A stretch of DNA of 59,034 bases, the filler included. It is 3 parts of 3 records of this genome, joined end to end, with 100 filler letters (N's around TTAATTAATTAA, not from the genome) between each part and the next. Parts side by side here need not be neighbours in the genome. Positions count along the whole stretch, not along the records: positions 19,283 to 50,339 come from SRR20825019_92; 2 more parts are not named here. One strand, given 5' to 3'. This document shows, one piece after another, positions 17,845-58,334 of this stretch (positions are counted from its first letter, which is position 1; the number at the start of each line of letters is the position of its first letter). The notes under the pieces are model-generated. The model saw only the letters and a program-made list of their open reading frames with translations. It did not search any database and was not told where the DNA came from. A program made the translations under genes and the position numbers.

Positions 17845-17845
17845 T

Positions 17846-18819: not shown

Positions 18820-19182
18820 ATGCGTCCAAGTGGTCGTCAAGCGAATGAGTTAAGACAAATCACCATCACCCGCAATTACACCAAACATGCTGAAGGCTCG
18901 GTTCTGGTCGAGTTCGGCGATACCAAGGTGTTGTGTACTGCCTCAGTGGAAGAGCGTATCCCCCCTTTCCTGCGTGGCACCGGCGAAGGCTGGGTCACCG
19001 CTGAATACGGCATGCTGCCGCGTTCTACCGGTTCACGCATGCAACGTGAAGCAGCCCGTGGCAAACAGGGTGGCCGCACCATGGAAATTCAACGCCTGAT
19101 AGGCCGTTCCCTGAGGGCAGCGATTGATCTGAAGACCCTAGGTGAGCGCACCATCACCATCGACTGCGATGTCATTCAGGCT
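18820..19182 (+). CDS. rph: Ribonuclease PH (3'-truncated by contig end)
   Basis: [50 protein letters not shown]. Confidence 0.96.
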
Positions 19183-19282
19183 NNNNNNNNNNNNNNNNNN
19201 NNNNNNNNNNNNNNNNNNNNNNNNNNTTAATTAATTAANNNNNNNNNNNNNNNNNNNNNNNNNNNNNNNNNNNNNNNNNNNN
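19183..19282. other. Artificial contig-joining spacer
   Basis: 44 N + TTAATTAATTAA (19227-19238, stops in all six frames) + 44 N. Confidence 0.98.
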
Positions 19283-34500: not shown

Positions 34501-37500
34501 TGCTTCAAAGCAAGCTGCACACTCGCCACCACAAATGGAAATTCTTCGATAATTTTGGTAGCAAGTGCGGAATTGCCGTTGTGGATAGCTAACAAAAGAC
34601 TTGCTCTCACGTCAGAATGAATATCATACTCCGATTCCATTTTCTCTTTTGTGCTCCTAGAGGACAGGTTAGCACTTTGAAATGGATTCATGATTGATTG
34701 ATTGATTGATTGAGCAACAGACCTGTTGTTAATACATTCCACAACTGCAGAAAACATGCTCGGAGGCGCCCCACTCATAGCCAGCGCCTGTTATTTTGAA
34801 CTCTTTCAGATCCAACTACACCAACACATGGAAATCTTAATACCTGCATCGGTGACACACCCTTCTTATTCGATATAACTACTGTAACCGCGCATTCCGG
34901 TAGAGCAAGAACTCTCTCTGCAATATCCCAATGACGACCCAATATCGCAGCCACTGCAAAAAGTGAGTTCGTAAAATTCAAAGCAAAAAAGCAAACCTAC
35001 TCAGAATGGTGTTCCCGGCTAGATCCCATACATCTTCATATCTGACTCCAAGCACCTTATCAATGATAAATTCGACAAGAGAAGCGTGCCCTCGCCCCGC
35101 TGCAAGAACAATGCTAGGAGAACGCTGGGGACCATTGGGTGTGTAAAAGTAGTGATCTATCCACGGCTCCCCCTTGAGGACGGGGTTAGGACTAGATTTT
35201 CGAGCCCTAAGTTCGCTTACCATTTCGCTTCCAGACTCTTCCTCAATAGCACCATTGCTCTCATCGTCTTCAAAATCAGATACGTTTCGACTAGTAAGCT
35301 GGCTAGCTTCGCCTTCGATGCCCTTGCCTAGTGCATCCCTCGTACTGGTATCCTCAATCTTGGATAATGCCTGCAAGATCTCGCTCTTGACAGTGTCGGC
35401 GACAGAAGGTCTCCTCTCAGATACCGCCTGGGATAATGGTCCGCTAATTGAAGCTCGCCGGGATCCAACTGCGCTCCCTTGTGGAGACTGCGAGCTCACG
35501 GTATTAGATATTGCCACCAGAAAGACCAACAGATAACCTACAGCCTGAACGGAGATGGGACGAGAGGATGTAGCAGTCATCTTGAAAAGAGGTGATTCGG
35601 ATACCTCATCCAGAACTTCAGAACATATGACTGCGATGTCGTCATAGCCATTCAGGCAGCAGTAACCAATAGGGGTGAACATATCCGCATCGGGAGATAC
35701 CAGCATGGCCTTCACGTTGCCGTGCTTATGAATCTAAAGCTAAAGTGAATATCGCCGGCGTCCTGCAAGAACATGAAACTAACCTTTTTCAGAAGAAACT
35801 TCAGGATCAATACTCGCTCTTTCTTATTGCCAGTACCCTTGCACAACATGTGAAAAATATTCTGGCCTTCATGGTTGGATCTTTTCAAGCTGGCGTCCCT
35901 ATCCAGCAGCTCCCTTACTGCCGCATTATTGCCAGCATATAGTGCTAGTAGAAGTGCTGAGTTTCCGAAGCGGTCAACAGATTCGACGGATCTAAAGTTT
36001 TTCATCACTGATGTGAGGAGGTGGGAAGCATATGCCAAAGATGTGGAGAGCACACAATTGTGCAAAACTGTTCGGCGATAGTAGTTCCGCTTTTTGATGT
36101 GAGGCATATTGTCTGTCTAAATTCAGAAATATGTACCAAGACTAAGCACTGCCAACTCACCAAGAAGGACCTCAATGCAATCTTTCTTTGTCGCTTCGCT
36201 GCCGGCGAAGGCGTAATTCAGAGGGACATCTCCGAGCCCATCCTCAAGGAGAGGATTCGCGCCAGCTACTAGTAAAGATTTTACGCCATCCTTATTTCCA
36301 AGCCATGAGCACAAGTGAAGAGGCCGTGGCTTGAGCTGAAACAAGCGCCGCATGGCTTCAAGTTGGCGATACTGATCGTGCGACATCATATCGGCGAGCT
36401 GTACCCTGGTGGCATTGGTTAGAAGGCGGCACCACTGCGGCGGTGGAACGCACCTGTCGACATATTCAATCCCGTCAATATCATTTTCAAAGTCTTCGAA
36501 CGCATCCTCATCGCCGTGCCTGATCGGCTTGTTCTGCCCCAAGACAAACTCAGGGACGCTATTCGATCTGGTAATACGATTTTTCCCGGAGTCCGAATCG
36601 GTTTCATCAATAGCACTTCCCTTGCTCGCAATCCTATTCAAGTCGTCCTCGCTCTCATTCAGTTCTGCATCGATCAACTTTTGTTTTCGGCGGTTGCGTT
36701 CCATCGCCTCTCGTTCTTCTTCTTCGCGCTTCGCCCGTTCCCTACAAAGTACGCCAATAAGACCCCATGTGGAATGATCCGAAGGTCCATCCCATACTTT
36801 TCCTCAGTTGCCTGCCTGATGCTTTCTTCTTCAACAAACTCTTTGTCGATTCCTTCTTCTTGTGCCTCCCCATCGGCTGAATCCTCCTTGCTAATTTCCG
36901 GCTGTGGTGCTGAGGAAAACGCCCCTCTTAGGAAGCGAATGGTATTGTATGCAGAGTTCAGCTTCCCGCGATATCCCTAGGAGATGACAAGTTTGAGAAT
37001 TGTCCCGCGAGCGTGCTATGCGTTTACCTGCGCGTTGGAATCCCGACCCTTAGACAGCCGCTTCAAAATGCGAATTCCCGTCTCTTCCTTCCTATTGTTG
37101 TTATCTTCATCACAGTAATCTTCGATGTCCACTCCAACCTGGAACAAACGGTTGGAAAAATATCAAAGACTTCTCGTGGATGGTACCGACCTGATGATTG
37201 AAGTCGGCGGTAGTGCAATGCTGCAGGAAAATCATCATCAGCTCCGCAACCTCGTATTCGCTCGTGACAACCCCTTGGTATAGCTTGTTGTACACGAGGC
37301 AAGCATAATGGATCGGAGCAAGACCATCATTATTCAACAGCCGAAGGTTTACGCCTCGGTTTAGGAGCATTTCCACAAGGGCAGCATTGCAAGTCTTCAT
37401 TGCTAGAGCAGCACCTTAGCGATCTCTAGAAACAAAAGTGACAACGGTACTATTACCACAATGGAGGGGAGTATTTCCATCATCACTTCTGGCATCAAAG

Positions 37501-38342
37501 TCAACTCCTGGACACGATTCAATAAAATATTTCGCAGTTTTCGAAGCCCCAATCCGAATGGCGTAATTAAGTGCAGGCTCCTCCTCAGGGATATTTCTGC
37601 TCTCTATAGGAGTCAAGGGGACATAGTGTTGTCTTTGAGTCAGCGTCAGATACACAGCCGGATTGACAAGAGGTGCAGCAGCCGTTGTAATTGTCACAAA
37701 TGACTGCGACATTCGGAGCCGCTTGTGGGCAACCTACGCAACTTGGTTTACAAACTACCATCCCAAGATAAGGTGGCCTTACCAGAGCACGCGCGAACAT
37801 TGGTGATGAAGGATCCATCGCGCCGACATGAGTGTACATCTCCACTGACCGAAAATCATCTTGCATGATGGCATCAGCAAAGTCCCGAACTATTTTTTCC
37901 TGAGAGATTGCCGTGCGGGTTAGCGCGACATCACCCAGTCAGACCCTTGCACACAATGGTCCAACCTGATCCGTCAAATAGTCAAAGTCGTCCCGGATCC
38001 ATTTTGGGGATCTCCAGTTATTTGGGATCATGCTGCCCTTTCTCTTGACTACAGACTCGCCCTCCTCCTCACCTTCATCCACATCCTTCTTCTCAGAAGT
38101 CTGAAAGAAACCTTAGACTCATTTCGACCTCACCACGCACTCCCTAATGCGAACCCACCTCGTCCCCTTCGCTAATATCAGAGTCTCCTCCCTCAACCGG
38201 TGCAGCGTCGAAGTCACCCATTTCCATTGAAGGGTTTGGCTCCATCGTGGACCTGTGACACCAAGTGAGATCTAGGCTACTAGATTTAAAACCACTCTTA
38301 CGACTGCTCAGACCCCGGCACCGGCAGCGTACTCGCGATCAT
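19511..38342 (-). CDS. Giant spliced ankyrin-repeat protein (eukaryotic; ~65-70 introns; roughly 5,100 aa)
   Basis: Consecutive minus-strand ORF fragments join in frame across GT..AG introns, e.g. 38301-38253, 38158-38101, 37965-37900, 37782-37734, 37456-37403 (restores GNTPLHC|AMKT), 33726-33673, 33582-33535, 21347-21296, 21146-21101, 20029-19992, 19800-19749. Dozens of GxTxLHxA-type repeats. The start codon and the in-frame introns are the least certain parts. Confidence 0.85.
34691..34710. repeat. (TGAT)5 microsatellite inside a 66-nt intron
   Basis: tgattgattgattgattgat within predicted intron 34722-34657. Confidence 0.85.
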
Positions 38343-39672: not shown

Positions 39673-41992
39673 ATGCAGCCTTATCCAGAGGCAAGAAACC
39701 AACAAGACGATATGACTAGGCGGCGGCTGTCGAGCATGGAGGGAGGGCGTACCCCTACTACACCTCACCTCAACACCCCAAATACTTTAGGAAACCCATT
39801 ATTGGATTCCTCCGAATATAGTGACGGTGCTCCCGCTCCTCGCAAGAAGGTTATGTCACGGTCCGGGTGTCATCCTGTTGTCACGACTTCTTGTGTGTTG
39901 ATGGCACTTGTTGTGGGTTGCGTAGTTGGTATGTTTGCGTTGATAGTGAGTTTTGTTGGTGGCCTTCTAACATTCCGTCTTGTTAGGTGCTGCTGCCTAT
40001 GGTGGTTACTCATTTTTATACCCCGCATCTCCCTCGCTGCACTCTGGCGGGGGTGACTCCGACGACGGAATATTGGCTCCAGAGCTCATCCCGAGACTTG
40101 TGGAGGTTGGAATCAATAGCATCACCCTTGACTTTGATAGGTATCCTCGTGCTCTTCAATACACTGCTGAGTGCACAGAACTCGAGTCCAAGAAGACTTT
40201 CACTATGGATTCGTCCACCTCCAAGGTCACAGTTACCGGCCTGGAAGCAAGCACGCTTTACGAATGCGTATACCGTGTCACTGTACCGGAGGGAGTGTCG
40301 CCGGACTCACCCTCGGTGAGGTACCCTACCCTAGCAGCCACCGTGCCTGGAAAGAGCGCTGGCGTGTGGGCTGTGGAGCCAACCACGGCTGATTTGATTA
40401 CACTCGACTGGGACGAGACCGAGAATGGTGGCTCCGATATCACTGAGTATGAGCTGCTCTACAGTGAGAGCAAGGCAGACAATACCGTGAAAGACTGCTA
40501 TAAGACTGGTCCTGGTTGCTCGGTCTGTGATGCTCCATATGAAGAGGTTTGTGTATGATAGTGTGGTGTTGTACGACGATGCCTTACGCGTATTTTAGGA
40601 ATCCTCTGAAACCTTCTTTACTTTAGGAGGTCATTGCAAAGACGTTCCGTTTACAGGATGCCCAAATTTCAACCTCAAGTTGGTGTGCTATGACTTCCAG
40701 GTGTGTTGCTTACTTGTGATAAGTGATATAAGCTAACGAATTCACTGCCTTAATAGTGTTGCCGAGATGTTCCTCAGGCAAACGAAGGCCAAGTTTTTGA
40801 GTCTCTTTACAAGGGCAAGGACAGTCATTTTACCCACAAGGGACTTCCAGCTGGCCACAAGTATGCATACAAAGTGTTGGCAAGAAATGAGGTCGGCGAT
40901 GGTTTACCCAGTCTTGCCACTCCCGCGTTTACATCTACCCCCGATGCCAAGGTCCCTGACCGTGCTGATGCCCCACGTATCAAGGACTCTACTCCCATCA
41001 GCTTGCGGTTGGCCTGGGATATACCCGAGCACAATGGTGCCATGATTGTAAAGGCCAAGCTACTCATGCATGATGGAGACAAGACGTCTGTAGCCTGCCA
41101 AGATGAACGCCACCTCACGAAGAGTTGTACAGTTGAAAATCTGAAGCCGGCAACCAAGTACACCTTCAGTGTGCAGGTGAAGAATGAGAAGGGATGGTCA
41201 CCTGAAGGAACCAAGGCTGAGTTGGAGACACCAGAGGCTGGTGCCCCGCCCACATGCAGTCCTGTTGAGTACGCTAACTCAGGGCCCGACTGGATCGATG
41301 TTAAACTCAAGGCCGCTCCTCACTACGATAAGACGATAGAACAGAAGTACGAGCTCGAGTATAAGCAAAACCGTGCAACTGAGTATACCAAGGTGAACGG
41401 TGCCATTGACATTGAGGATGAAGGAGAACTTGTCTATCGTGTTGGTTCGTTGGTTCACAACAAACATTACAACTTCCGAGTTCGTGCTGTGAACTCCAAA
41501 GGTTCAGGTTCGTGGAGTGAAGTTATTGAAGACTGCTGTGACACCCAGTTGTCTGGCAAATGTAATGCTAAGGACCGCAAGATAATGACGCACAGTGAGA
41601 AGGCTGAATACGAATATAGTGGTATGTATGATCGACATGATGCGAGGTACACACATTCATTTATATGTGCAGACATCGCCCATGATTGCGGCAAGTCGAA
41701 TCTTGGCCGCTCTGAAGCAACTGCGGCCTGTATCCGCAGCCAAGTATCAGGCTTCAGTGCAGGCTGTGCATCGTGCTTCGGCGAGGTATTATCCTTCATG
41801 AGAATGTATGATACGAGTACTCACTGGTTTGTGTAGGTGGCCTCGTGTGGCAAAAGCAAGTGTTGGAGCAAGTGCTTCCCTAATGATATGTCACAGGGCT
41901 GCCGCCAGTGCTACCAAGACAATTGCCGGCCATCGCTTGCGGAATGTGCCGGCATAGCCATGGAGGATCTCCCTCGCGAGCGCCCATTGTAG
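39673..41992 (+). CDS. Spliced single-pass membrane protein with four fibronectin type III domains and Cys-rich modules (683 aa)
   Basis: Exons 39673-39928, 39987-40546, 40599-40700, 40757-41621, 41673-41785, 41837-41992 total 2052 nt with consistent phases; introns are 58, 52, 56, 51 and 51 nt GT-AG. FN3 motifs GLEASTLYE, GLPAGHKYAYKVLARNEVG, NLKPATKYTFSVQVKN, YNFRVRAVNSKG. Confidence 0.88.
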
Positions 41993-42105
41993 GATGGATA
42001 CAAATGTACAATTAAAGGATTGCAATGCAGAGAAAGAGTGTTTACTGGGTGCTAATCATCAATAATGATTTTTCGAAACAGCCTGGTAGAATTGCCAAGC
42101 CTACT

Positions 42106-45100
42106 TCATGACAGTACCACATCCTCTACGGTGATCGATCCCTTCCTCTCTTTCAATTCCTGGAAAAACGCGAGATTCTCCTTAGTATTACTCAAAAGTG
42201 TATTTGCCGCGTCAGGATTGCGACTGTGAAGGAGACTACACAGGACTTCGACCTGCGGCAACCCAATGAAAGACATAAATCCGACTTGGCATTCCGCAAC
42301 AGCAGGTTTTTCACGATCCATGAAGGGGCTAACTGGCATGCCATAAGCCTTTTCGACATCACCCTGGGTCCAGAATTCCCTGATGACACGGAGGACCCAG
42401 CGAAGATAAATCTTCAGAGGACGGGCAGGATTCGAAACGTCGGCAACCTTGATGATAATTTTCATAAGAAGCACTCGGTCAATATCCACGGCACTAATAC
42501 CTCTGCTCTGCGCTTCCTTAACCGCATTCAGGACGGAGTTGTGCTTGGATAAGTCCGTACTCAAGACTACCTGGGTAATCAAATCCTTCATGCGCGCTTG
42601 ATCCTTCTCAGAGAGGTGAGTGAGGAAAGCGCAATGCTCGTCTTGCATGACGTGAAAGGCCTCACAAAGATGATAACATTCCAAGACGCTATCCGGTTCT
42701 CCCCTCTCTTCCGCCAAGTGCAGTAGCTCTGAATTAGTTGCTTTCAGGAATACATTTGTTACAGCAGGATGGCGGAAGTCATGAATGGTCGCCGCTATGA
42801 TCAACGCTAGTTGTTCCAATGGAGTGAAAATCTGCTCCAACTTAAAGGCCGCCATGATGAAATGAACGGCTTGTACAACATCAGCCCCATGTGTGGAGTT
42901 ATGGTAGAAATTCCTCGCAATATATCCATCATTGATCACCACAAGGAAGTTTTGAAGTCTCTCCAGAGGAAGCGCCAGCGTTTCAACAAGGTCCCGAGTG
43001 TTAATGGTGTACCAAGACGCAAAGTAGAGAGGGGCGCCTCGAGATTTCTTGGCTAACTCGAATACATCGAATTCCCACGTTCCAGCATTGTGATACAGAT
43101 ATGGGTTACACTCTGAAGCGTGAGTATTGTAATTAGACCGGACTCGCACATTCGCTCGACAATATTTTGCAGTCTGTTGCATAGATAGCTTAATTTTGCA
43201 GTCCTCGATATACCATGATATAGCCTTATCATTCGGATTACTGGCCTTCAACTTTTCCAAGAGACAGAAAGCATCACCTCGAATCTGTTGAACAGTAAAC
43301 ATCACTGCTTTCTCAAACTCATGCTGATATTCGATCTTCGAAGAGTGATTGATAATAATCTCATAAATGTCAACTGGAATCGTTTTCCCCTTCACTGTAA
43401 CAAGACCAATATGCCTGTGTCGCAAGGCCTGAAGGACTGTCGAATCGATTCGGTTCAATGTGTCGCCTGTGATTAAGATTTCTGCGCCAAACACTTTGGA
43501 CTGACCCTCTAGCCTGGAGGCAGTATTCACCACATCCGATATCACCGTTGAGTCCATTCGTAGAGTCTCGCCAATTGTTCCAAGCACAACTGGCCCTGAA
43601 TTAATGCCAATGCCAACAAGGATGGGGGGCTCGTTCATTTGAGCACGTTGACGATTGAAAGCGGACAATTCGTCAATAATGGCACAAGCAGCCTTCACAG
43701 CATCTGTGGCGTGAGTAGCACTGCTCGGAAATAATGCCATGATACAATCTCCAATATATTTGTCAATGAAGCCTGAGTGCCGTCTGATGATCGGACCAAG
43801 CCGAGACATAACATCGTTCAGAAGATCAAAAACACTGCGCGAGTCGGCCAGCTGCTCCGAAATAGATGTGAAATCCCGAATGTCCAGATAGAAGACAGTC
43901 ATTTCAAGCTCATTCATATCGCCCAGACAAACATCGATAGCGTTCGAGCTTCCCAATAGTCTACAGAACTCGGACGGTACGAAGCGTACGTACGATTCGT
44001 TGACGCTGATCAGCTCTTTGTTCCTCTCTTCCAAAGCCTTCGAGTGTTCTCTCAACTCTGAGTACAGGCGAGCATTGTTCAATACTACAGTCATCTGCGA
44101 AGACAACATGTCCAGCATATGAACGTGGGTTTTTGTGAAAGCATTCTTAAGCACAACATTCTCAACATAAATGATGCCGTGAAGTCTTTTCTGCATAGTC
44201 AGTGGAATGCAAGCTACACTCCCGTCACGGGTACGACTAGATAAACCGGCCCCATAAACAGGCTCCGTTTTCTTCAATACCATTTCAACAACTTTCATGT
44301 CAATGTCACGAAACTCCTGCAAAGACACATCAGGTTTGAACATTTCTCCTCTGCCATTTGTGCATATGTTCACAAACAGTTTAGATGGAGCTGCAAGCAC
44401 ATCACGGCGAGTCGCAGTCTGGACTCCTTCCACTCCCATAGTGTTTGTGTTTGCGAGAGCGAATACTACTGTCTGCGCACCAGAAAACTTGGAAACAACA
44501 TCAACAAGGCTAACCAGCAACTTATCGAAGTCAATTTCCGATGAAATAAGTTTGCTGGCTTGGGCCACAGCTTGGCTGTCGAAAGAGGCGGCTTTTCCTC
44601 CTTTTGTAGTGTCAACAGTTCCTGTAGCAACTGTGGTGTCTCCTTCTGTATAACCCTCCGGTGATGAAGTCGAACTCCCGCTGCCCGCCGACTTCATAAT
44701 GTGCGACGCGTTCTCACCAGCAAGGACGGATACAACAGCCATTGAACCCCACATACACCCATACTCTACGAAGGTATGGACAACTGCCGACGCAATAGAT
44801 TCCAGGCTTGATTTGTTCAAGGCCTCGAACAACAATCCAGACGCAAGCACCACGATGCTTGGTTGTGAATTGACGCGAGCATTACTTATCGCTGAATCTA
44901 GAATCGGAATAGCATTGTGCCAAGAATTCTTCAAAATCAGCAGGTGTGCCTGCACGACTAGCAACCGACTACGATATAGTCGCGGTTGGTGCGCAGCGAA
45001 TACCTTGAGCTTCTCCATCAAATGCTCGATTTTCTTGTTATGCCTGTCAATCTCATCTAGAACACCATCATTTTGTTCTTGTAAATTGAGAAATCTAATT

Positions 45101-48100
45101 CTCTCTATGAGAATTAATGGCGCTATGCAGACATATTCGATATAGGGTATCAGACCAGTAGAAAGGTACAGAGACGATTCAGGAATCTTCGTGAGGATCT
45201 GGTATGCTTCTTCATACTGCTGGAGTAGGGTATAAGCCAACGCATAGTATATGTGTGATATAGAAACAAAAAAGAATGGATGGTCAGGTGATATTTGCGC
45301 TTCTTCATCGGACAGCCAAGAGCTGACTTGCCCGCTTTCTAGCAGGGAGAGTGCCCCATACACTGCCGTGAGCGACCGATTATACAATGTCAACTTGCGC
45401 CGACGTGACAGCTCAATGTAACCTCGAAGCTTTGAGGCCACAATTGGAATCGGACTCCCTCCCTGTGTGAGACTCCAGCATTCCTGAATGGCTGCAAACA
45501 ATGCATAGGAGTGATCCGAGAGGGACATAGCTATCAACCTTCCCTCATTGAAGTAACTGCTAATATCCTTGGGATCCATAACCCATTGGCAGGTCATACC
45601 CACATGAACGTTAACCCGCGCCGTCGATATGCCCTTGGCATCTTGGGAATCACTCATTTGCAAAAGAGCGTGCTTAGCCAGCTCTCCCCCCAGTTTCAAT
45701 TCATTGTAGTACGCAGCCATAACAAATCCAAAGACCGCCAAGCCCTCTGCTGTTCTTGGATTCACACCATACACCATTGCTCTAGAGGTGATTGTGGTCG
45801 CTGCCCATGTGTAGAGACCACGGTTTCCTACAAAATAAGCTAATGAAATCAAATGCATCAATAGACCGCAGATAGTTTCCTCTTCCCAGGCAATATTGAG
45901 ACTCCATTTGCTAGTAAGGGTAGAGAAATCGGTGGTTTCACACAAGAGATTCTTGGTTCTAGACACAATCTTCTCAACGTCATCAGGGGAAGGACTTATA
46001 GTTGCAGGCATTCCAAAGACCTCGTTAAGGCAGTCGATAATGCAATCTATCGCTTGCCTTGGTGCGTTTTGATGAAGGAGTCGCCTTGTCTTCTCACCAT
46101 AAGCCCAAGCAATATCGCTGTACTTCGTGCAATGCACCATCACCATCGAAAAATAGTCCATGTAAAGTTCAGAATCATGGTGGTCAACCTCTACTTCCAA
46201 GAGTGCTTTCAGCACTAATAATTCAAGGTTCTCGCTATCCGAGGCAATATTGCAATTAGAAAAGAATGTCAGAGCGTGCTTTTCCATGTGGGACATCCAA
46301 TTCTTCCGCTCGCCGTTCGCTACAACTTCAAAAATCCGAGATTCGATCCCCTGAAGGTAATGGTTTCGATCCTTTCGGTTCAGCACTGCATCAACTACCG
46401 ACACTTGAAACAGAAAGAAGAAAGAACAATATGCATGCTGTCGAGCCCGGACATTGTCGCTAGACTTGAATTGACGGAAAAAGTGCATATTCAAACGAGT
46501 ATATACTTTCAATTCCCCAAGAATCAACTCCAGTTTTCCCTTAAAATCAATATCGTTGACTCCCAATTCCCGTGACTTTGCGTCGTGTACCAGTCGAACA
46601 AAATAGTCAAGACTGTCGTTCGCCAGCTCACATACAGTCCCACCATACTTCAAAAACATTTCCCCTTCGACAATATCTTCGTCAAATACGTTAGGTGCCT
46701 CAATAGGCGTCGCAGGGTCAAAATCCTTTTGGCAAATAGCAAAGAGGGTGCGCATAACAGAGACTCGAGTAACCCGTTGACCTCTAAAAGATACACTTCT
46801 TCTCTCGATTTCGTCACGGGCACTCTTCTTACTAAACTCTACAACCGTATCGTTGAACCTAGCACTGCTTGATAGAGACAGTATTCTGTTTTCGTTCATA
46901 CTCCCCACTAATTGGCTAACATCCTCATAACACATTCCCATCACCAGAGCGAGTATCCACACCGTAGAAGATCCACCGACCCAATGTAGCGCAATCAAAA
47001 ACTCTAGATCGCTATCACGTAAGTTTGTTAACTTCTGATTCATGTCTAACATTAAGTCATCATATCCTTTCCAAATGAAGGCACCCTTATCAAAAGAGAA
47101 GCGAATAACGCCACTGAAGAACAAGGCCCGAACGACTTTTTCCATTCCCAAGGGATTCCCAGTGCAGGTTTTGTGAACTCTCTCGGCTAGTTGGCGAACA
47201 AGCTGAATATTTTCATGAAAACATGTTGATATGTACTTCTCGATGTCCCCGATGTCAAGTGGATGCATCTTGATTTTCTTCAGAGATTGCCCCGATGCCA
47301 TCTCCACAACACGTTCAATATGGGGATTGACTTCACTACACTTAGATTGAATCGACAGGAACACAAGACAATTCACATTCTTCTCCATCAGATTCGATAA
47401 TTGAGCCGCAAGGAGATCGCTCATTTGGTGGGCATCATCAACAACAATTACCAATCTGCTGCCACGCAACCCGTTGGCCAAGTACTCTAGAAGTTTCTTC
47501 ATTTCGTCATCCAAATCACTTTCAAAGGAATGCATGTCGTCTAGAGCTGAGGTCTCTCGCATTTTTGAGTCCACAGGCTCGAGGCATCCTTCAAAGAAGA
47601 CATCACGATAGTCTGGAAATTCCCGCCACACCCTTGTTAGCCTCAACAGAGACAAGTCCTCGCGAAGCGTCATTAATTGCACCATTCCCAATTTCTTCAT
47701 GGACACAGCAATCGCATCAATCAACATTGAATGATGGGTTTTGGCTTCTTTCTCGCAACTGACAGAAACTACAAAATCTCTCGAAAAGCTTCGTTCACAA
47801 TACTTGTTGAGGACCACGGTCTTGCCACACCCTTCATCACCTTCCAAACACACAACACGGGCAGCCACAGCTGGTTGGCGAAGAAATTCATCGATTTCTG
47901 ATATAGTGTCATCTCTCCCTAGAAAAGTCTGTGTTGGTGCAAATTCTCCATTCACGCCTCCGTCCATCGCAATCTCGGATATCGGGCCCATGTTAAACAA
48001 ATCGTTTCTAAGAGAGACTTCTGATATATCTGAACCATTGGCTATTCCTTTCAAAAACTCTGGAAATAAGGATTGTGACACCTTCCCTGCAGGTCCCAAA

Positions 48101-49463
48101 AATGCGCGGAATAGTGCACACATAGACAAAAACCGGTCATCGGGATTCTTTGATATCATCTTGGCAATGATATTCCCTATCAATGGCGGCACAGCAGTAT
48201 TCAAGGTACAGACATTCGGCGGAACCGTTGCGAGGTGGCCGTATATCACGGACTCTTGGTTTGCAGAATCCTGGAAAGGAGTAGTACCTGTCAGCAGGAA
48301 AAAAAATGTAATGCCGAGGCTGTAAATATCAGATTTGATGGATATGGGGGTGTCCAGCCTCCCTGTACATTCAGGGGACATATAAAGCGGTGTTCCCACA
48401 TTTGTGGACCTCGACTGGGCGGATTCAGCGAGCAACGAAGCTATCCCAAAGTCTAGGATGGAAATAGACATTCGCCGAAGACCGGGCCTCAACTGCATTC
48501 CATCCCCATTGTCGAAATACTCCACGTTCACGGCCACATTGTCTGGTTTCATATCACGATGAAGAATATTGCATTCGTGAACATGACCCAACGAATGGAT
48601 AAGCTGACAGGCTACTACAATAAATTCTGCGACATCAAGGGGGCCAGTATTGCCAACCAATGTGGCCAGTGTCTCAGACCCTTCGTCAGAAACTACCATT
48701 GCGGCCTCAGTGCTACCCAACTCAACAAACCCAAGCCCTTTGGGGCACCTGACTACAGTAGACTCCAGTGTCGACAAAATGCTCCACTCGTGTTCAATGG
48801 CACTCTTAGGGCCGGCCTTGCACACAGCAGGGACACCTGTGTTCGCGTGCTTGCATCGATAGACAACCCCATGTGAATTCCGTTTCAGCTCGTAAACAAT
48901 AGTATATTCCAAAGTCTTCAGGGCGTATTGCAGATTCGTCATTCCCTGAGTGAATACCAAGGTTAAAACCAGAAACATACACAGAACACAAACACAACAA
49001 AATTTCGTACATCCATTTCGTAGTAAACAGCCGAGTTAGATTTGCTTTTCGAGCGAAATTTACGTGAGAAGATACTTCTATCTGAGAAGACGCTTTTCTC
49101 TTGGGTGTCCGACGAAGACTCCATTGAGACTATGGCGGTGGCTGGTGACCTGGGCTGAAAGTCAAAGAAATATGGTCAGCGTTGTCGCCCAGTTGTTAGC
49201 AGGCACAAGCCTACCAACGCATGCAAGGAAAACGGTGTTTCGAAAGTAACGCCGCGTGGTGTACCGCGAGGACTGTGTATTCCGGTTGTGTTTTCCGCTT
49301 CGCTATTGCTTGAATTCTTTCTATTTTTTTCATTGAGGGACAGCGCCCGGGAAGCCTTCTTTGGGCCTGGAAGGATCCGCCCGCTGGAACCTTGTGTCCC
49401 GACCCATGAGGTATGGCGCACAGACTTAGGAAGACTATATATACTATCGCCCTCGTTACTCAT
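42106..49463 (-). CDS. Ser/Thr kinase - STAND/AAA ATPase - GAF - class III adenylate cyclase - class I phosphodiesterase fusion (2410 aa, 3 exons)
   Basis: Exons 49463-49215, 49154-49011 and 48945-42106; introns 49214-49155 (60 nt) and 49010-48946 (65 nt), both phase 0. Motifs: HRDMKPDN/DFG/YMSPE; GDEGCGKT/VIVVDD/GNP; ISSEID..GIIYVEN..NARLY; DIRDFT/DKYIGD/VNTASRLE; YHNSTHGAD/HDFRHPAVTN/ADVSNP/QVGF. Confidence 0.92.
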
Positions 49464-49660
49464 GCTATGCGAGGGTCACTTTCGACAATACAACCAATTT
49501 CTGATATAAGTACACAAATATATGCACATCAAAACTGGCAGAACGATGACGTTTTCGTTGCAGGCTGCGCAAGAGAAGTTAACCCTGCAACGGGACCTAG
49601 CCAACAAACACAAGATGAAAGGCTCTAAAGCCGCCCAATTAGCGGAAACAACGTCAAAGT

Positions 49661-49682
49661 CTCTCTCTCTCTCTCTCTCTCT
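49661..49682. repeat. (CT)11 microsatellite
   Basis: Pure CT run ~200 bp upstream of the fusion gene start. Confidence 0.92.
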
Positions 49683-50339
49683 ATCCGTTCCCCCCACACC
49701 CACCCCTCTCAGTCTCTTGAGCTCGATGTGGCCCCAATACACTTCGCCATACATGGGCAGCCATGCTTCGAAAAGGAGATGGCTAACAAGAAGAACTGGG
49801 CAATATCCTCTCGACTGGCGCGGATACCGTTTGACCATTTGCCACAACTGCGTTCCCCTGCGTTGAGGCGACTGACGTTGGAGACTTGTCCTGGTTGAGC
49901 CCACAAGCCTCTCACTGATCGACTGAATTCGGCGGTCCCGGGCAGCCGGCCTGTGGGGGCTGTGAGGGCATGATGGTGTGTTCATGGTGCGGCCCGGCCG
50001 CACGCCGCACAGTCGAAATTCAGTGCCCAGCGGCAGGCCGAATGGGACCGAAGGCCCCCTGGCTCGGACTGAGCCGCGAAGCAGCAACGCATCGGAGATA
50101 ACAACCCCACTGACCCCATCCGAAATCGTCAAAACCCGAGGAGGCACAGGGGACGGTAGTAGACCACAGAGCCAATGAGACAATTCAAGGGTTTTTATAA
50201 TATGTCTATATTTAGAATAATGTAGGAAATACCACATCTTCAAAATATAGTTCTGGATTGATCTCGGGATGAAGTCAGTATTTGTATACCAATGTTAACA
50301 CAAATGATATGTTGTTCATGTAATTGTGCACATGATACC

Positions 50340-50439
50340 NNNNNNNNNNNNNNNNNNNNNNNNNNNNNNNNNNNNNNNNNNNNTTAATTAATTAANNNNN
50401 NNNNNNNNNNNNNNNNNNNNNNNNNNNNNNNNNNNNNNN
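50340..50439. other. Artificial contig-joining spacer
   Basis: 44 N + TTAATTAATTAA (50384-50395) + 44 N. Confidence 0.98.
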
Positions 50440-50440
50440 G

Positions 50441-50617
50441 GATCTGGCGGATGCGCTGGGCCTGTCGCTTGTTCACACCAACAAAACTCTGAGCAAATTG
50501 CGCACGCGTCAGCTGGCGAACTGGAGCGACGACGCGTTGATCGTCAATGATCTGGGCGCCCTGGCTAAGGCCGCTTGCATGACGCTGGAACCTTTGATGA
50601 AACGTCCGATCATGTAA
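50441..50617 (+). CDS. Crp/Fnr family regulator, C-terminal HTH fragment (5'-truncated)
   Basis: Translates DLADALGLSLVHTNKTLSKLR...KRPIM*; absent from the ORF track. Confidence 0.85.
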   Translation, partial: DLADALGLSLVHTNKTLSKLRTRQLANWSDDALIVNDLGALAKAACMTLEPLMKRPIM

Positions 50618-50646
50618 GCGGATCGTCAAAGATCGAACAGGTCCGG

Positions 50647-50679
50647 GACCCTCTGCACGCCCCTGCAGAGGGTCTTTTT
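50647..50679 (+). terminator. Intrinsic terminator
   Basis: 11-bp stem GACCCTCTGCA/TGCAGAGGGTC, 6-nt loop, then TTTTT; lies between convergent genes. Confidence 0.85.
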
Positions 50680-50680
50680 G

Positions 50681-51559
50681 TTATCGTGGCTCCGCCGCCA
50701 GTACATCATCCTTGACCTGACCCCAGGCGATCAGCGCAAAGACCACCGTGCCACCAACGATATTGCCCGCCAGCACCGGAATGAAAAAGCCGAACAAAGC
50801 CTCGGTCGGGCCAAGCAACCCTTGCACCGCAAGATAAGCCATTTCGACCGACCCTGCGACGATGTGGGTAAAGTCACCCGCCGCGATCAGCCATGTGAAT
50901 GTCAGGATGATGAAAAACCCGGATTCGTCCGCCTGCGGCAGCATCCACACGATGGCCGCGACCAGAATGCCCGCCGGAATCGCGCGGAAAAAGCTTTCGT
51001 CCGCGGGCATATGGATTGCATGTTCAGACAAGGACAGCAGCGCAGGCGCAAGGTTTTCAGGGATCGCGGGCGTATAGGCGTAAAGCGTCGCAATACAGAA
51101 CGCCCCCAGCACGTTGGCCCCCAGCACAATCACCCACAGCCGCGCCACGCAGGCGAAATTATGGGCCGTTGGTTTGACCATCAGCGGCAGCACCGTGGTG
51201 ATGGTGTTTTCGGTGAACAGTTGCATCCGGCCCATGATGACCAGCAAAAAGCCCAGCGAATAGCCGAAGTTCTCGATCAGGAACGACCATGGCGCATCGG
51301 GCAGATAGGTTCGCAGGATCGCCTCGCCCAGCACCGAAAAGCTGATCATGATGCCAGCGGCCGTACCGGACCAGAACAGCGACCGCTTGGTGCGCGCCAG
51401 CTCTTCCTCGCCATCGCGGCGGATCACTTCGTAAATCAGCTTTGACGACAGTTTGGCCGCGGCTTCGACCGACTCGCGTTCGGTTTCTTCGTCAAGGGGC
51501 ACCGCACCGGGATCGTTCTCGTGAATAGATACCATTTTATGTTCGTCCCAGTTGGTCAT
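50681..51559 (-). CDS. Formate/nitrite transporter family protein (YfdC-like)
   Basis: GEEELAR, QLFTENT, HIVAGS, GNIVGG; multiple TM helices. Confidence 0.9.
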   Translation of the reverse strand: MTNWDEHKMVSIHENDPGAVPLDEETERESVEAAAKLSSKLIYEVIRRDGEEELARTKRSLFWSGTAAGIMISFSVLGEAILRTYLPDAPWSFLIENFGYSLGFLLVIMGRMQLFTENTITTVLPLMVKPTAHNFACVARLWVIVLGANVLGAFCIATLYAYTPAIPENLAPALLSLSEHAIHMPADESFFRAIPAGILVAAIVWMLPQADESGFFIILTFTWLIAAGDFTHIVAGSVEMAYLAVQGLLGPTEALFGFFIPVLAGNIVGGTVVFALIAWGQVKDDVLAAEPR

Positions 51560-51662
51560 CGGACTTTAACACGCGGACCTCTTGTTTGGTTCCCGTTTAT
51601 CTGGTGCCATTGCCGCGTAGGTGTTCTGCCCCACATTGCAGCCTGACACTTTGGAGAGATAC

Positions 51663-52889
51663 ATGTTCGGATCGCGCGCCTATGTACTGAAAATCGCACA
51701 AGACGTGCGATCCAGCTATTGGTTTATTCCCTCCACCCTGGTGGTCGCGGCCCTTTTGCTGTCTGAACTGACCCAGTGGATCGACCACAACCCCGATATG
51801 CTGCCTGTCGCGCTGCCGGATGATTTTCTGAACACACAGGTGGACGGCGCGCGGCAAACGCTGGCGGTGATTGCGCAATCGATCATCGGGGTGACGGGTG
51901 TGATGTTCTCGATCACCATGGTGGCGGTGTCCTTTGCCTCTGGCAACTTCGGGCCGCGGCTGATCGGGAACTTTATGCGCGACCGGGGCAACCAGACAAG
52001 TCTGGGCCTGCTGATTTCGTCCTTTGTCTACACGCTGATGATCCTGCGCGCGGTGCAAAGTTCCGGTGCGGACGGGCTGGAATCCTTCGTGCCGCAATAT
52101 TCGATGGTCGCGGCGATCCTGCTGACGTTGATGTCGGTGGGCACGTTGATCTATTTCCTGCACCATATTCCGGAAACCATCAATGTATCGAACATTTCGG
52201 CCGCGTTGGGGCGCAGATTGGCGCGGGGAATCGAACGGATCATCGACAACCACGCCGAACGGACACCTGAACCCGAAGTGCAGCCTGCAAAGAATGCGAC
52301 CGAGACCGAGCTGAGCCTTGGGCGTGCGGGCTATATCCAGCAGCTGGATCTGACAGGTCTGTTTGAACTTGCCGAAGAAAACGACTGGGTGGTCCATGTC
52401 GCCGTCGAGATCGGCAGCTTTGTCAGCATGTACGAAACGGTCCTGACCGTCTATTCGGCCAGCGCACCCACGGCAGACCAATGCGACAGCCTGTGTTCCA
52501 GCTTTGCCGTCGGTGAAGAGCAGACCGAGGCGCAGGACATCACATTCATGATCGACCAGCTGGTCGAGATGTTGGCGCGGGCCTTGTCGCCGGGGGTGAA
52601 TGATCCGTTTACCGCATTGAATTGCCTGAACTGGCTGCGCAACGGCATCAGCGTCGCCTTGCAATACAAAGGTGGGCTTGCCCCGGTGCCGCGGGCGCGC
52701 GTGCAATACCGCAGCCTGACCCTGCAGCATTTGCTGAACATCAGTTTTCGTGCCGCCGCACCCTATTGCATGCCCGACAAGATGGCGCGCGACCATTGGA
52801 TGTTCTCCGTGCGCAGCCTGATGGACGCGGCCACGGGCGAACATAAAAAGACCGTGGCCAAGCTGCTTGAGGAATTTGAAAAAGCCTGA
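51663..52889 (+). CDS. DUF2254 family membrane protein
   Basis: SSYWFIP, FSITMVA..ASGNFGPRL, ARALSPGVNDPFTA. ATG at 51663 follows GGAG. Confidence 0.88.
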   Translation: MFGSRAYVLKIAQDVRSSYWFIPSTLVVAALLLSELTQWIDHNPDMLPVALPDDFLNTQVDGARQTLAVIAQSIIGVTGVMFSITMVAVSFASGNFGPRLIGNFMRDRGNQTSLGLLISSFVYTLMILRAVQSSGADGLESFVPQYSMVAAILLTLMSVGTLIYFLHHIPETINVSNISAALGRRLARGIERIIDNHAERTPEPEVQPAKNATETELSLGRAGYIQQLDLTGLFELAEENDWVVHVAVEIGSFVSMYETVLTVYSASAPTADQCDSLCSSFAVGEEQTEAQDITFMIDQLVEMLARALSPGVNDPFTALNCLNWLRNGISVALQYKGGLAPVPRARVQYRSLTLQHLLNISFRAAAPYCMPDKMARDHWMFSVRSLMDAATGEHKKTVAKLLEEFEKA

Positions 52890-52958
52890 GCGCAGCCATT
52901 TGCCAAACCGGATCACTTGTCGCACAACTGCGGCACTGCTGATTGAAAGGTTCCCGTC

Positions 52959-53654
52959 ATGCGTTTCGTCTTTCCACCCGCTCCCCAGGCCGCTCTGGCC
53001 GTTGCAGGCAGCACCGACCATTTCCCGGTGCGGCGTGTCTTTTGCGTCGGGCGCAACTATGCCGCCCACGCCCGCGAGTTCGGCAATGACCCTGACCGCG
53101 ACCCGCCGTTCTTTTTCACCAAGCCGGCGGACGCGGTGGTGAACACGCCCTGCACCGTGCCCTATCCGCCGCTGACCGAGGACCTGCATTTCGAGATCGA
53201 GCTGGTCATTGCCATCGGCAAGGGGGGCGCAGACATCGCGGCTGGGGATGTACCCGATCATATCTGGGGCGCTTCGGTCGGAATCGACCTGACCCGCCGT
53301 GATTTGCAGAACGAAGCCAAGAAGATGAGCCGCCCGTGGGACTGGAGCAAGGCCTTTGACCACTCGGCGCCGATCGCCCCCATCGTGCCGATGGCCGATG
53401 TGCCCAGCCTGACGCAGGGGCGCATCTGGCTGGCCGTGAACGGCGAGATCAAGCAAGACGCCGACATCGCCGATCTGATCTGGCCGGTGGCCGATCACAT
53501 CGCAACGCTGAGCCAGGCGATGACACTGGCCCCCGGTGACATCATCATGACGGGCACGCCTGCGGGCGTGGGGGTGGTGACGCCCGGTGACGTGATGACG
53601 GGCGGTGTCGATGGCATTGCTGAACTTGAGGTGACAGTGGGGCCGCGGGCATGA
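52959..53654 (+). CDS. Fumarylacetoacetate hydrolase family protein (fumarylpyruvate hydrolase-like)
   Basis: RRVFCVGRNYAAH, PFFFTKP, HFEIEL, DLTRRDLQ, TGTPAGVG. Confidence 0.92.
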   Translation: MRFVFPPAPQAALAVAGSTDHFPVRRVFCVGRNYAAHAREFGNDPDRDPPFFFTKPADAVVNTPCTVPYPPLTEDLHFEIELVIAIGKGGADIAAGDVPDHIWGASVGIDLTRRDLQNEAKKMSRPWDWSKAFDHSAPIAPIVPMADVPSLTQGRIWLAVNGEIKQDADIADLIWPVADHIATLSQAMTLAPGDIIMTGTPAGVGVVTPGDVMTGGVDGIAELEVTVGPRA

Positions 53655-54295
53655 CGCTTGTCCTGCACAACTATTTCCGCTCGTCCACGTCGACACGTGT
53701 GCGGGCGGCACTGAACCTCAAGGGGCTGGCCTATGACTATGTGTCCTATGCGCTGCTCAAGGACGAACAGCGCGGGGCGGCGCATCTGGCGCTGAACCCG
53801 CAAGGGCTGGTGCCGACCTTGGTGACGGATGAAGGTGCGCTGCCGCAGTCGCTGGCGATCATCGAATGGCTGGACGAGGTACACCCCGAGCCGCCCTTGC
53901 TGCCCGCCGACGCATGGGGTCGTGCGCGGGTGCGCAGTCTGGCGCATATCATCGCGCTGGATGTGCATCCGGTGAATAACCTGCGCATTCTCAAACACCT
54001 TGAAACCGAATATGGCGTCGATGCCGACGGCAAGGCCGCGTGGTTCCGCAAATGGGCACAGGCGGGGATGCAGAGCCTTGAGGCGCGCCTGTCCTCAGAG
54101 GCTGAAACCGGCACCTTTTGCCACGGGGATATCCCCGGTCTGGCCGATCTGTGCCTGTTCGCGCAGGTGTTGAACAACGGACGGTTCGGCGTGGGGCTGG
54201 ATGCCTATCCGACCATTGCGCGCATTCACGCGGCCTGTATGGCATTGCCTGCGTTTGAACGCGCAGCCCCCGCCAACCAGCCCGACGCGACCTGA
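53651..54295 (+). CDS. maiA: Maleylacetoacetate/maleylpyruvate isomerase (GST zeta)
   Basis: YFRSSTSTRVR, NPQGLVP, QSLAIIEWL, HPVNNLRIL, PANQPDA; ATGA overlap with the hydrolase. Confidence 0.93.
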   Translation: MTLVLHNYFRSSTSTRVRAALNLKGLAYDYVSYALLKDEQRGAAHLALNPQGLVPTLVTDEGALPQSLAIIEWLDEVHPEPPLLPADAWGRARVRSLAHIIALDVHPVNNLRILKHLETEYGVDADGKAAWFRKWAQAGMQSLEARLSSEAETGTFCHGDIPGLADLCLFAQVLNNGRFGVGLDAYPTIARIHAACMALPAFERAAPANQPDAT

Positions 54296-54381
54296 TGCGA
54301 CACCGTGGCACGCGGCCTTCGTCTGGCTGCGTGCTACTCTGGATCTGGACAATGCTGAAGCCAGTTGATCGGAGTGACCCC

Positions 54382-54855
54382 ATGAAATCCATGTTCCGCG
54401 TTCTTGCCATCTTCGCCCTCGCCACACCTGCCTTTGCCGACAGTCACGCGGCGGGGGATGCCGACGCCGGGGCCAAGACCTTTGGCAGATGCAAAAGCTG
54501 CCACATGATCGCCAATGGCGACCAAGTGATCGAAAAGGGCGGGCGCACCGGGCCGAACCTCTATGGGGTGATCGGGCGTCAGGCGGGCACCGCCGAAGGA
54601 TACAGCTATCAAAAGTCGATCGTTGCCGCGGGCGAGGCTGGCCTGGTCTGGGACGAGGAATCGCTGACCAAATATGTCGCCGATCCGCGTGAATTCCTGC
54701 GCGAATTTCTGGACGATTCCAAGGCCAAGTCGGGCATGTCCTTCAAGCTGAAAAAAGGCGGCGCTGATGTGGCTGCCTATCTGGCGCGCGTCGGTCCCGA
54801 GGTTGCACCGGCAGAAGCAGATGCCGCAGCAGCGCCTGCCGACAGCGACAGCTAA
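54382..54855 (+). CDS. Periplasmic class I cytochrome c (c2/c550-like)
   Basis: Signal peptide ending PAFA, CKSCH heme motif, TGPNLYGV, KSGMSFKL (axial Met). ATG at 54382 follows GGAG. Confidence 0.93.
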   Translation: MKSMFRVLAIFALATPAFADSHAAGDADAGAKTFGRCKSCHMIANGDQVIEKGGRTGPNLYGVIGRQAGTAEGYSYQKSIVAAGEAGLVWDEESLTKYVADPREFLREFLDDSKAKSGMSFKLKKGGADVAAYLARVGPEVAPAEADAAAAPADSDS

Positions 54856-54859
54856 GAAT

Positions 54860-57221: not shown

Positions 57222-57222
57222 G

Positions 57223-57573
57223 TCAGATCCGTGGTTTCGGGGCGGCTGTGGCAGGATCGCCGGTGTTCGGCACGCCCTTGGGTTCGATCAGCAGCACCTT
57301 GCATTCGGCTGCGGCGCGGGGCCGGTGGGTGACGCCGCGCGGGACGATAAACAATTCCCCCGCGCTGACCTGATGCTGGGCATCTTCCAGATCCATCACC
57401 ATTTCGCCTTCGAGCACCAGAAAGAAATCATCGGTGTCTTCGTGCAGGTGAAATGGGAATTCGCCCTGAAACTTGACCACCATCACGTCGTTGTCGTTGT
57501 ATTCAGCGACCACATGCGGGTCCCAATGGGTGCTGAACTGCGCCAGCTTGGCGGCAAGGTTGACCGTCTTCAT
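57223..57573 (-). CDS. Cupin domain protein
   Basis: GEFPFHLHEDTDDFF, GELFIVPRGVTHRP, LLIEP. ATG at 57573 overlaps the SDR stop (ATGA). Confidence 0.9.
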   Translation of the reverse strand: MKTVNLAAKLAQFSTHWDPHVVAEYNDNDVMVVKFQGEFPFHLHEDTDDFFLVLEGEMVMDLEDAQHQVSAGELFIVPRGVTHRPRAAAECKVLLIEPKGVPNTGDPATAAPKPRI

Positions 57574-58310: not shown

Positions 58311-58334
58311 GTCATTCCTCCCTGTGAATACGCC

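Follow-up and report, generated by a model that had tools for sequence, protein, structure and literature searches.

Can a single polypeptide sense a signal, make cyclic AMP (cAMP) and destroy it again, and is the reading frame that appears to encode such a protein a genuine gene? The question is raised by a long open reading frame (ORF) on the minus strand of the DNA stretch analyzed here (59,034 nucleotides, filler included; hereafter "the window"), in which an initial annotation made from the letters alone had seen a kinase, an ATPase, a GAF domain, an adenylate cyclase and a phosphodiesterase (PDE) in one chain. The explanation that we regard as the best, with a probability of roughly 0.6, is that this is one real gene of a eukaryote, in which a bacterial-type sensor-cyclase scaffold is tethered to a PDE, and that its product would both make and degrade cAMP.

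A Pfam scan of the whole 2290-amino-acid (aa) protein with curated cut-offs, combined with the location of motifs, gave five modules in the order Pkinase, AAA_16, divergent GAF (whose matches lie below their cut-offs), class III cyclase and class I PDE, in agreement with the architecture proposed for this frame (Table 1). All the motifs named in the initial annotation were found close to the places given there, and, as had been suggested, the alignments show every catalytic residue that we checked to be in place, be it in kinase, P-loop, cyclase or PDE. In the kinase these are K54, the HRDMKPDN motif (residues 140–147, with D142 and N147) and DFG (176–178, with D176); its C-lobe aligns with PknB, with HRD, N147 and DFG retained. 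The Gly-rich loop of the kinase, also noted earlier as degenerate, is indeed so, but the consensus of a 28-row family alignment (discussed below) has the same feature, as well as a Ser at position 1814 of the cyclase, and thus we consider both to be traits of the whole bacterial family rather than signs of decay. In the ATPase region additional weak Pfam matches were obtained for AAA_22, ATPase_2, nSTAND5 and NB-ARC. Its Walker A motif, GDEGCGKT, comprises residues 380–387 (positions 47818–47841, about 100 nt from the "~47930" of the initial annotation), while Walker B (VIVVDD) and the GNP motif are located at residues 510–515 and 607–609, respectively.

The long region between the ATPase and the GAF domain exhibits no Pfam match even at an E-value of 5; its homologues carry the TPR_CHK1 domain (PF25503). 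An AlphaFold model of residues 340–1480, built from 28 sequences (mean predicted local distance difference test score, pLDDT, 67), comprises an alpha/beta P-loop core, a region of helices and small sheets, and a long array of paired helices, for which pLDDT reaches 75–95 over residues ~920–1430. The top Foldseek matches of this model were Avs3, a STAND-TPR protein (6MFV), Cdc6/ORC, CED-4, MalT and Apaf-1, with E-values for the STAND-type folds from 6e-7 to 3e-4 and low template modelling (TM) scores. To judge from the AAA_16 match, the motifs and this model together, the P-loop, the Walker A and B motifs, the helical region and the repeat arm that define a STAND NTPase are all present.

The GAF domain is the most divergent part of the architecture. 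In the context of the whole protein, three GAF models scored 17–19 bits, all under their cut-offs; with the isolated segment PF01590 reached 21.7 bits (cut-off 22.4) over profile positions 4–131 of 133, and PF13492 reached 23.6 bits (cut-off 27). We nevertheless tentatively assign this segment to GAF, because the match is close to the threshold, collinear bacterial homologues show strong GAF matches (e.g. P0130), and the alpha/beta domain is modelled with confidence. The model of the C-terminal 811 residues (1480–2290), built from 29 sequences, has a mean pLDDT of 87.8. Read towards the C-terminus, it starts with a GAF-like alpha/beta domain that a 48-residue helix connects to the cyclase; behind the latter come a helical tail, a disordered stretch and an all-helical PDE. 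The RFVP motif of the linking helix recurs in the family consensus. The disordered stretch has pLDDT values below 50 at model residues 460–481, i.e. residues 1939–1960 of the protein. We found no convincing hydrophobic segment (the highest Kyte-Doolittle mean over 19 residues is 1.7), and hence the protein is predicted to be soluble and devoid of a membrane anchor.

The cyclase domain was identified with a PF00211 score of 61.6 bits (cut-off 21.9), and its best solved relative is CyaB from Pseudomonas aeruginosa (3R5G, 104 bits), with lower-scoring matches including Cya2 (2W01) and rhodopsin guanylyl cyclases. The alignment with CyaB shows that D1699, K1740, D1744, R1807, T1811, N1818 and R1822 are kept; D1699 and D1744 align also with Asp residues of OaPAC, and T1811 lies seven residues before N1818. 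Position 1814 is occupied by the family-typical Ser, where many cyclases have Gly. We take D1699 and D1744 to be the metal-binding residues, N1818 and R1822 to be the transition-state positions, and the K1740/T1811 pair to be the adenine-specific, substrate-defining one, and on account of this Lys/Thr pair we predict ATP as the substrate. The resemblance to CyaB concerns the key residues of the cyclase, whereas the regulatory modules of the two proteins differ.

The PDE domain is the module assigned with the highest score: PDEase_I (PF00233) matches residues 2025–2252 with 220.1 bits (cut-off 24.8, E-value 4.7e-65). Its motifs are YHN..H (2025–2030), HDFRHPAVTNVF (2066–2077), ADVSNP (2179–2184) and Q2231, and in the alignment with PDE4D the residues H2026, H2030, H2066, D2067, H2070, E2100, D2180, N2183, Q2231 and F2234 are all kept, the HD signature included; the His and Asp residues among them are presumably the metal ligands, Q2231 the invariant Gln, and F2234 the Phe clamp. 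Among solved relatives human PDE4D scored highest (197 bits; range for PDE4 185–197), followed by PDE4C, PDE4A and PDE4B, PDE7 and PDE1, with PDE3, PDE8 and PDE9 ranking lower (about 122 bits for the cGMP-specific PDE9; cGMP, cyclic GMP). The model of this domain has the all-helical PDE fold with pLDDT above 90 over most of its length, and superimposes on PDE4D and PDE4B chains with TM scores of 0.87–0.92, a root-mean-square deviation of about 2 Å and 32–36% identity. Human PDE4D and PDE4B (e.g. 1OYN, 1TB5) therefore share with it the catalytic fold, the metal ligands, the Gln and the Phe clamp. In PDE4, however, a regulatory region precedes the catalytic domain, while neither the Pfam scan nor the searches against solved relatives revealed a match to that region in our protein, whose catalytic domain is instead fused behind a cyclase. 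The nearest single-domain relatives of this PDE are 30–40% identical, and those bearing an organism name (six of the ten looked up) are all eukaryotic: a bird PDE4D-like protein, the amoebozoans Clastostelium, Ceratiomyxa and Mastigamoeba, Diphylleia and Eutreptiella. A word-index search with the PDE among long proteins returned three weak matches, two from Eimeria and one from a crab.

The remainder of the protein has an entirely different kinship. In BLASTP comparisons with 11 homologues the alignments are collinear from residue ~20 (query start 20–119, except for the partial sequence P0130, which starts at 1322), and every one of them ends at residues 1926–1938, approximately 10–25 residues short of the homologue's own C-terminus. 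These homologues are bacterial Pkinase-AAA_16-TPR-GAF-cyclase proteins of ~1700–1850 aa, such as P0132 (Deltaproteobacteria bacterium TL4), P0130 (Halothece), P0154 (SAR324) and P0188 (Spirochaetota), with the same order of modules as residues ~20–1930 of our protein. They end shortly after the cyclase tail, whereas our protein continues for another ~350 residues of linker and PDE; moreover, they come from bacterial genomes, while our gene lies on a contig with spliced introns. The 28-row alignment reveals as shared motifs the kinase N-lobe lacking GxGxxG, the catalytic loop, DFG, Walker A and B, GNP, the RFVP motif before the cyclase, the cyclase core including TVISD.VN, and the C-terminal helical tail; identity to the family over the GAF-cyclase part is 33–45%. 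A word-index search with the GAF-cyclase-PDE part gave 351 matches within the length classes covered, and most of the best 120 are proteins of ~1700–1900 aa with Pkinase, AAA_16, GAF and Guanylate_cyc; PF00233 is present in none of these 120. The corresponding search with the N-terminal 1480 residues gave 39 matches, mostly kinase-AAA_16-GAF proteins that terminate in either a histidine kinase or a cyclase, so that both kinds of ending anticipated in the initial annotation were encountered. An excerpt of PMC2176072 mentions HstK-type kinases (Anabaena HstK), sister forms that end in a histidine kinase. All scaffold matches that bear an organism name are bacterial, including cyanobacteria, Chloroflexi-type metagenome-assembled genomes, Myxococcota, Deltaproteobacteria, Spirochaetota and SAR324. 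The kinase-AAA_16-GAF scaffold is common in bacteria, and it has probably reached a eukaryote by gene transfer from a bacterium, with the PDE fused on afterwards, as the sequence comparisons suggest. The nearest clusters in the ESM Atlas, which we treat as leads, are bacterial sets with cyclase and GAF, cyclase and HD, or kinase and AAA_16. Among them are Bacteroidota and Spirochaetota clusters with Guanylate_cyc and HD or HD-GYP, which may be bacterial counterparts of a fusion between cyclase and hydrolase.

Has the same fusion been made elsewhere? An exhaustive phmmer search with residues 1480–2290 against 1.84 billion representative sequences yielded 90,529 hits. The protein itself is absent from the best 150 of them, which all score at least 211 bits, and so is any sequence more than ~45% identical to it; a fusion with a total score under 211 bits would fall outside this set. 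When 253 fetched proteins were searched locally with phmmer, the cyclase was found in 236 and the PDE in 13, and the two together in none. Pfam analysis of 15 hits, mostly with several matched stretches, revealed proteins with multiple cyclase or multiple PDE domains, never both. A scan covering a single genome for each prokaryotic species returned just one distant cyclase, from Ruegeria (32% identity), and a scan of metagenome contigs with the protein found no close relative. The metagenome scan was also made with an alignment of the PDE, and we kept 80 of 502 loci encoding a PDE relative; TBLASTN with six parts of our protein against these 80 loci detected the AAA, helical-arm and GAF parts in none and the cyclase in two. 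The absence of a cyclase upstream of most loci says little, because only 23 of the 80 have at least 3 kb of upstream sequence. One of the two positive loci (L081:4556-8560, plus strand, on a metagenome contig of 51.6 kb) is a eukaryote-like, stop-free frame of 1334 aa with PDEase_I at residues 267–489 followed by Guanylate_cyc at 1019–1214; this order resembles that of CAPE (see below) and is opposite to that of our protein, and AAA_16, helical arm and GAF are lacking. A CtIP/SAE2-like gene adjoins this ORF. The other (L049:1065-6970, plus strand, on a 13-kb metagenome contig) encodes a cyclase-like frame of 869 aa (weak PF00211 match), a kinase of 391 aa and a PDE of 763 aa, on one strand within 6 kb and likewise devoid of AAA_16, arm and GAF; these frames could belong to one spliced gene or to several adjacent ones, with too many fitting GT..AG pairs for a choice between the two.

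Two cyclase/PDE fusions are known from the literature. CAPE (COMBINED AC with PDE) occurs in Marchantia and other streptophytes with motile sperm, according to excerpts of PMC5159850, PMC8115329 and PMC11032487. Like our protein it is a single chain with both a class I PDE and a class III adenylate cyclase, for which its authors propose spatial control of cAMP. In CAPE, however, the N-terminal domain is the PDE and the C-terminal one the cyclase, as the initial annotation had stated and as the excerpt of PMC8115329 agrees, so that by description the order is the reverse of that in our protein; it belongs to the plant lineage, and the excerpts describe no kinase, STAND or GAF module. The other is a bifunctional guanylyl cyclase/phosphodiesterase of the diatom Seminavis robusta, which, in the excerpt of PMC4726125, has two predicted transmembrane segments, a cyclase and then a PDE. 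As far as that description goes, it shares the cyclase-then-PDE order with our protein but has N-terminal membrane segments, is read as cGMP-specific and comes without kinase, STAND or GAF, where our protein has a kinase and STAND module and no convincing hydrophobic segment. Naming CAPE as the known cyclase/PDE fusion was therefore too narrow, since the diatom protein, by the same excerpt, and the L081 frame also combine both domains. For the full kinase-AAA-GAF-cyclase-PDE architecture we found no description in the literature (supplementary tables of genome papers may list such architectures), and no example in the sequence libraries searched, in line with the earlier suspicion that none had been described. 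The cyclase and PDE in one chain are hence a known idea; their union with a kinase-AAA_16-GAF scaffold, in a eukaryote, was not found elsewhere and appears to be new.

The reading frame itself is free of stops over 2309 codons (42106..49035, minus strand), with the first ATG at 48978. The initial annotation had extended it as a single frame to 49463: the claim holds for 42106..49035 but not for its upper end, as 49463 is an ATG in another frame, whose connection to the main frame requires the removal of two candidate GT..AG introns and would give a predicted protein of 2410 aa. Codon usage provides further evidence on the unity of the gene. The G+C content at third codon positions is 0.47–0.53 in six segments (kinase, AAA, middle, GAF, cyclase and PDE) and 0.38 in a 45-codon linker segment. 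Between the PDE part and residues 1–1930 the correlation of codon usage is r = 0.40, and eleven 360-codon windows of residues 1–1930, each compared with the rest of that stretch, give r = 0.21–0.47; the PDE value falls inside this range, and there is thus no break in codon usage at the junction. The codon usage of the scaffold correlates with that of the ankyrin and fn3 ORF pieces of its own contig at r = 0.51, and with the two bacterial contigs of the window at r = 0.06 and -0.12. In X1, the one public sequencing run listed for the window (0.09 of sampled words; no RNA run is listed), a 2108-nt contig at a depth of 108 matches the neighbouring fn3 gene minus two 51-nt GT..AG stretches. These spliced introns indicate that the middle contig is eukaryotic and that X1 holds transcript-derived sequence. 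X1 also contains three pieces of our gene with at least 99% identity at a depth of 2–5 (Table 1). The open frame and the continuous codon usage favour the view that the long frame is one real gene of a eukaryote.

Table 1. Features of the window, in positions of the whole stretch; residue numbers refer to the 2290-aa protein
Feature	Position	Strand	Remarks
Main ORF	42106..48978	-	2290 aa from first ATG, plus stop codon (42106-42108)
Ser/Thr kinase domain	48124..48876	-	residues 35-285; Pkinase 97.3 bits
AAA_16 / STAND-type P-loop NTPase	47383..47925	-	residues 352-532; 41.7 bits, cut-off 32.6
Paired alpha-helix array, TPR-like putative sensor arm	44689..46626	-	residues ~785-1430
Divergent GAF	44080..44529	-	residues ~1484-1633
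Helix linking GAF to cyclase	43966..44133	-	residues ~1616-1671; ends in RFVPSEF
Class III nucleotidyl cyclase	43384..43905	-	residues 1692-1865; Guanylate_cyc PF00211
Helical extension after cyclase	43165..43383	-	residues 1866-1938; common to the C-terminal tail of bacterial homologues
Fusion linker	43084..43164	-	residues ~1939-1965 (~25 residues); predicted disordered
Class I (PDE4-like) PDE catalytic domain	42139..43083	-	residues ~1966-2280
Candidate exon 1	49215..49463	-	ATG at 49463, in-frame stop four codons upstream; predicted
Candidate intron 1	49155..49214	-	60 nt, GT..AG, contains CTAAC; predicted
Candidate exon 2	49011..49154	-	144 nt; predicted
Candidate intron 2	48946..49010	-	65 nt, GT..AG, includes first ATG of the plain ORF; predicted
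X1 piece	42461-42900		in PDE
X1 piece	43111-43331		residues 1882-1956: scaffold end and most of linker
X1 piece	43586-43737		in cyclase
fn3-domain gene	39971-41995	+	convergent with the main ORF
Two 51-nt GT..AG introns of fn3 gene	41621..41836	+	skipped in the 2108-nt X1 contig
Contig A	1-19182		bacterial, genes densely packed
Middle contig	19283-50339		31,057 bp, GC 0.44-0.54; eukaryotic
Contig C	50440-59034		bacterial, GC up to 0.64

The surroundings of the gene have to be read with the make-up of the window in mind. Two artificial linkers, at 19183-19282 and 50340-50439, each consist of 44 N, TTAATTAATTAA and 44 N and provide stops in six frames; the window is therefore made of three separate contigs, and neighbourhood across either linker is meaningless. 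The order is bacterial (A), eukaryotic (the middle contig, which bears the gene) and bacterial (C). Contig A has Pfam domains that fit a biotin-synthesis cluster, a RelA/SpoT enzyme, RecG, UbiA, chorismate lyase and YicC; it also carries two genes for GAF-GGDEF diguanylate cyclases (6074-7138 and 16816-17844), unrelated to the protein discussed here. On the middle contig, ankyrin repeats were found in 14 of the 80 ORF pieces outside our gene, all 14 on the minus strand, and fn3 domains in two. The ankyrin pieces occupy all three frames of the minus strand over 16 kb (21762-37733), a pattern compatible with a large intron-rich ankyrin gene, or with several. The match of the X1 contig to the fn3 gene ends at 41995, about 110 nt from the stop of our gene, and is followed by 24 letters that match nothing in the window. 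Scans of the middle contig for tRNAs and Rfam families gave no matches, and no large DNA repeats were found on it. The contig extends beyond the upstream end of our gene by 1.36 kb only, and this sequence is uninformative; it contains a 272-codon open frame (49479-50294, minus strand) with no Pfam match, which crosses a (GA)n microsatellite (~49670-49695) and a GC-rich stretch and looks non-coding (a promoter or 5' region).

Several observations count against the explanation preferred here. The GAF assignment stays under the Pfam cut-offs, and no solved GAF structure was found by sequence (best E-value 0.32). The N-terminal 1480 residues are 23–34% identical to their matches. The transfer from bacteria is read from the organism-named matches, a minority of all, and, as a single copy is known, conservation cannot serve as evidence of function. 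The predicted 5' exons and introns have no support from X1 reads, so that the true start, at 48978 or at 49463, is itself a prediction. The initial annotation had proposed mapping reads across the cyclase-PDE junction; this yielded the pieces in cyclase, linker and PDE, but no X1 read or contig bridges the boundary from cyclase to PDE (the uncovered parts are 42901-43110, 43332-43585 and everything above 43939). With bacteria and a eukaryote in one assembly, and a join exactly where the bacterial-type protein ends, a chimeric contig is conceivable. Finally, both enzyme activities, the choice of nucleotide and the coupling between the domains are predictions from sequence.

The chimera question raised by a eukaryotic contig among bacterial ones can be settled in part. 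An in silico join between a bacterial kinase-AAA-GAF-cyclase gene and the PDE gene of a eukaryote, or a frame that is read as two products, would account for the mixed assembly, for bacterial-type homology stopping just ahead of the PDE at 1926–1938, for the junction that no X1 read bridges and for the short uninformative sequence upstream. Against this, the frame is open across the join and codon usage shows no break there; the scaffold resembles in codon usage the eukaryotic ORF pieces of its contig and not the bacterial contigs; X1, a run with spliced eukaryotic transcripts, holds the pieces of the cyclase, of the scaffold end with the linker, and of the PDE at similar low depth; and a GA microsatellite and intron-like GT..AG signals lie upstream. 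We therefore judge such an artefact to be quite improbable. Still less credible, and in our view very improbable indeed, is a wholly bacterial contig, for instance that of a symbiont with many ankyrin, fn3 and PDE genes of eukaryotic appearance: the relatives of the scaffold are bacterial and a 6.9-kb frame runs on with no interrupting intron, but the two spliced 51-nt introns of the adjacent fn3 gene, the spread of ankyrin coding pieces over frames across 16 kb, and the scan of prokaryotic species, with the distant Ruegeria cyclase as its sole yield, all speak for a eukaryote.

If the gene is real, it could still work differently from what we propose. The two enzymes might act on different nucleotides, with cAMP made and cGMP removed or the reverse, and the protein would then be a node of cross-talk rather than a self-limiting circuit. 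PDE specificity is not reliably readable from a few residues, and the lower-scoring matches of the cyclase include Cya2 and rhodopsin guanylyl cyclases; the residues of the diatom cyclase/PDE were themselves taken to indicate a cGMP enzyme (excerpt of PMC4726125). Yet K1740 and T1811 align with the adenylate cyclase CyaB, and the PDE scores best with cAMP-specific PDE4, then with PDE7 and PDE1, and much lower with cGMP-specific PDE9, which leaves this alternative rather unlikely, though worth bearing in mind. It is also conceivable, but unlikely, that one of the catalytic modules is non-enzymatic and has a nucleotide-binding or scaffolding role. Many GGDEF-EAL proteins carry such modules, and the kinase without a canonical Gly-rich loop and the Ser at position 1814 of the cyclase could be taken as hints in this direction. 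However, the odd loop and Ser1814 are common to the whole bacterial family, neither the cyclase nor the PDE lacks any of the catalytic or metal-binding residues checked, and the C-terminal part is modelled confidently (mean pLDDT 87.8).

Returning to the preferred explanation, a eukaryotic sensor that makes and degrades cAMP, the known behaviour of the constituent families suggests how it might work. An encounter of the repeat arm with its ligand takes STAND NTPases from a closed ADP-bound state to an oligomeric ATP-bound state; GAF domains use a coiled helix to signal to class III cyclases, and the latter are active solely as dimers, with the active sites at the interface. Signal-dependent dimerization or oligomerization would therefore be expected to start the synthesis of cAMP. 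The scaffold would comprise the Ser/Thr kinase, the STAND NTPase, the TPR-like arm, the GAF domain, the signalling helix and the adenylate cyclase with its short helical tail, followed by the linker and the PDE. Its STAND/TPR/GAF part may sense a ligand or partner and drive dimerization or oligomerization, whereupon the homodimeric cyclase would make cAMP from ATP; the tethered PDE, closest to the cAMP-specific PDE4/PDE7/PDE8 and held within a few nanometres, would degrade it, resulting in a brief or local signal. As for the kinase, it may phosphorylate itself or pass the signal on. The activities of the cyclase and the PDE could possibly be switched reciprocally, which is plausible because two PDE domains would hang directly on the cyclase dimer. 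More tentatively, and with rather less than even confidence, we suggest that a microbial eukaryote acquired a whole bacterial STAND kinase-GAF-cyclase sensor and fused to it a PDE4-like domain, so that one switch toggles synthesis and hydrolysis in opposite directions and the protein, soluble and self-contained, serves as a one-chain generator of pulses or local signals with a built-in kinase output, a type of protein that is not known to have been described.

With one copy known and its function predicted throughout, the significance of this protein has to be stated with restraint. If both enzymes are active, it would be the most complete single-chain cAMP module so far, comprising a sensor, a switch driven by nucleoside triphosphate, a kinase, a synthase and a hydrolase, and would be a natural system in which to study how long and how far a second messenger acts when the PDE is tethered to the cyclase. 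Its C-terminal 811 residues, confidently folded in the model, are a candidate for a compact tool for controlled cAMP transients. For the biology of the host, it would mean that a bacterial STAND signalling protein works inside a eukaryote once a eukaryotic domain has been fused to it. Next to CAPE and the diatom protein, it would also be a third, independent way of arranging a cyclase and a PDE in one chain, which suggests that such fusions evolve repeatedly.

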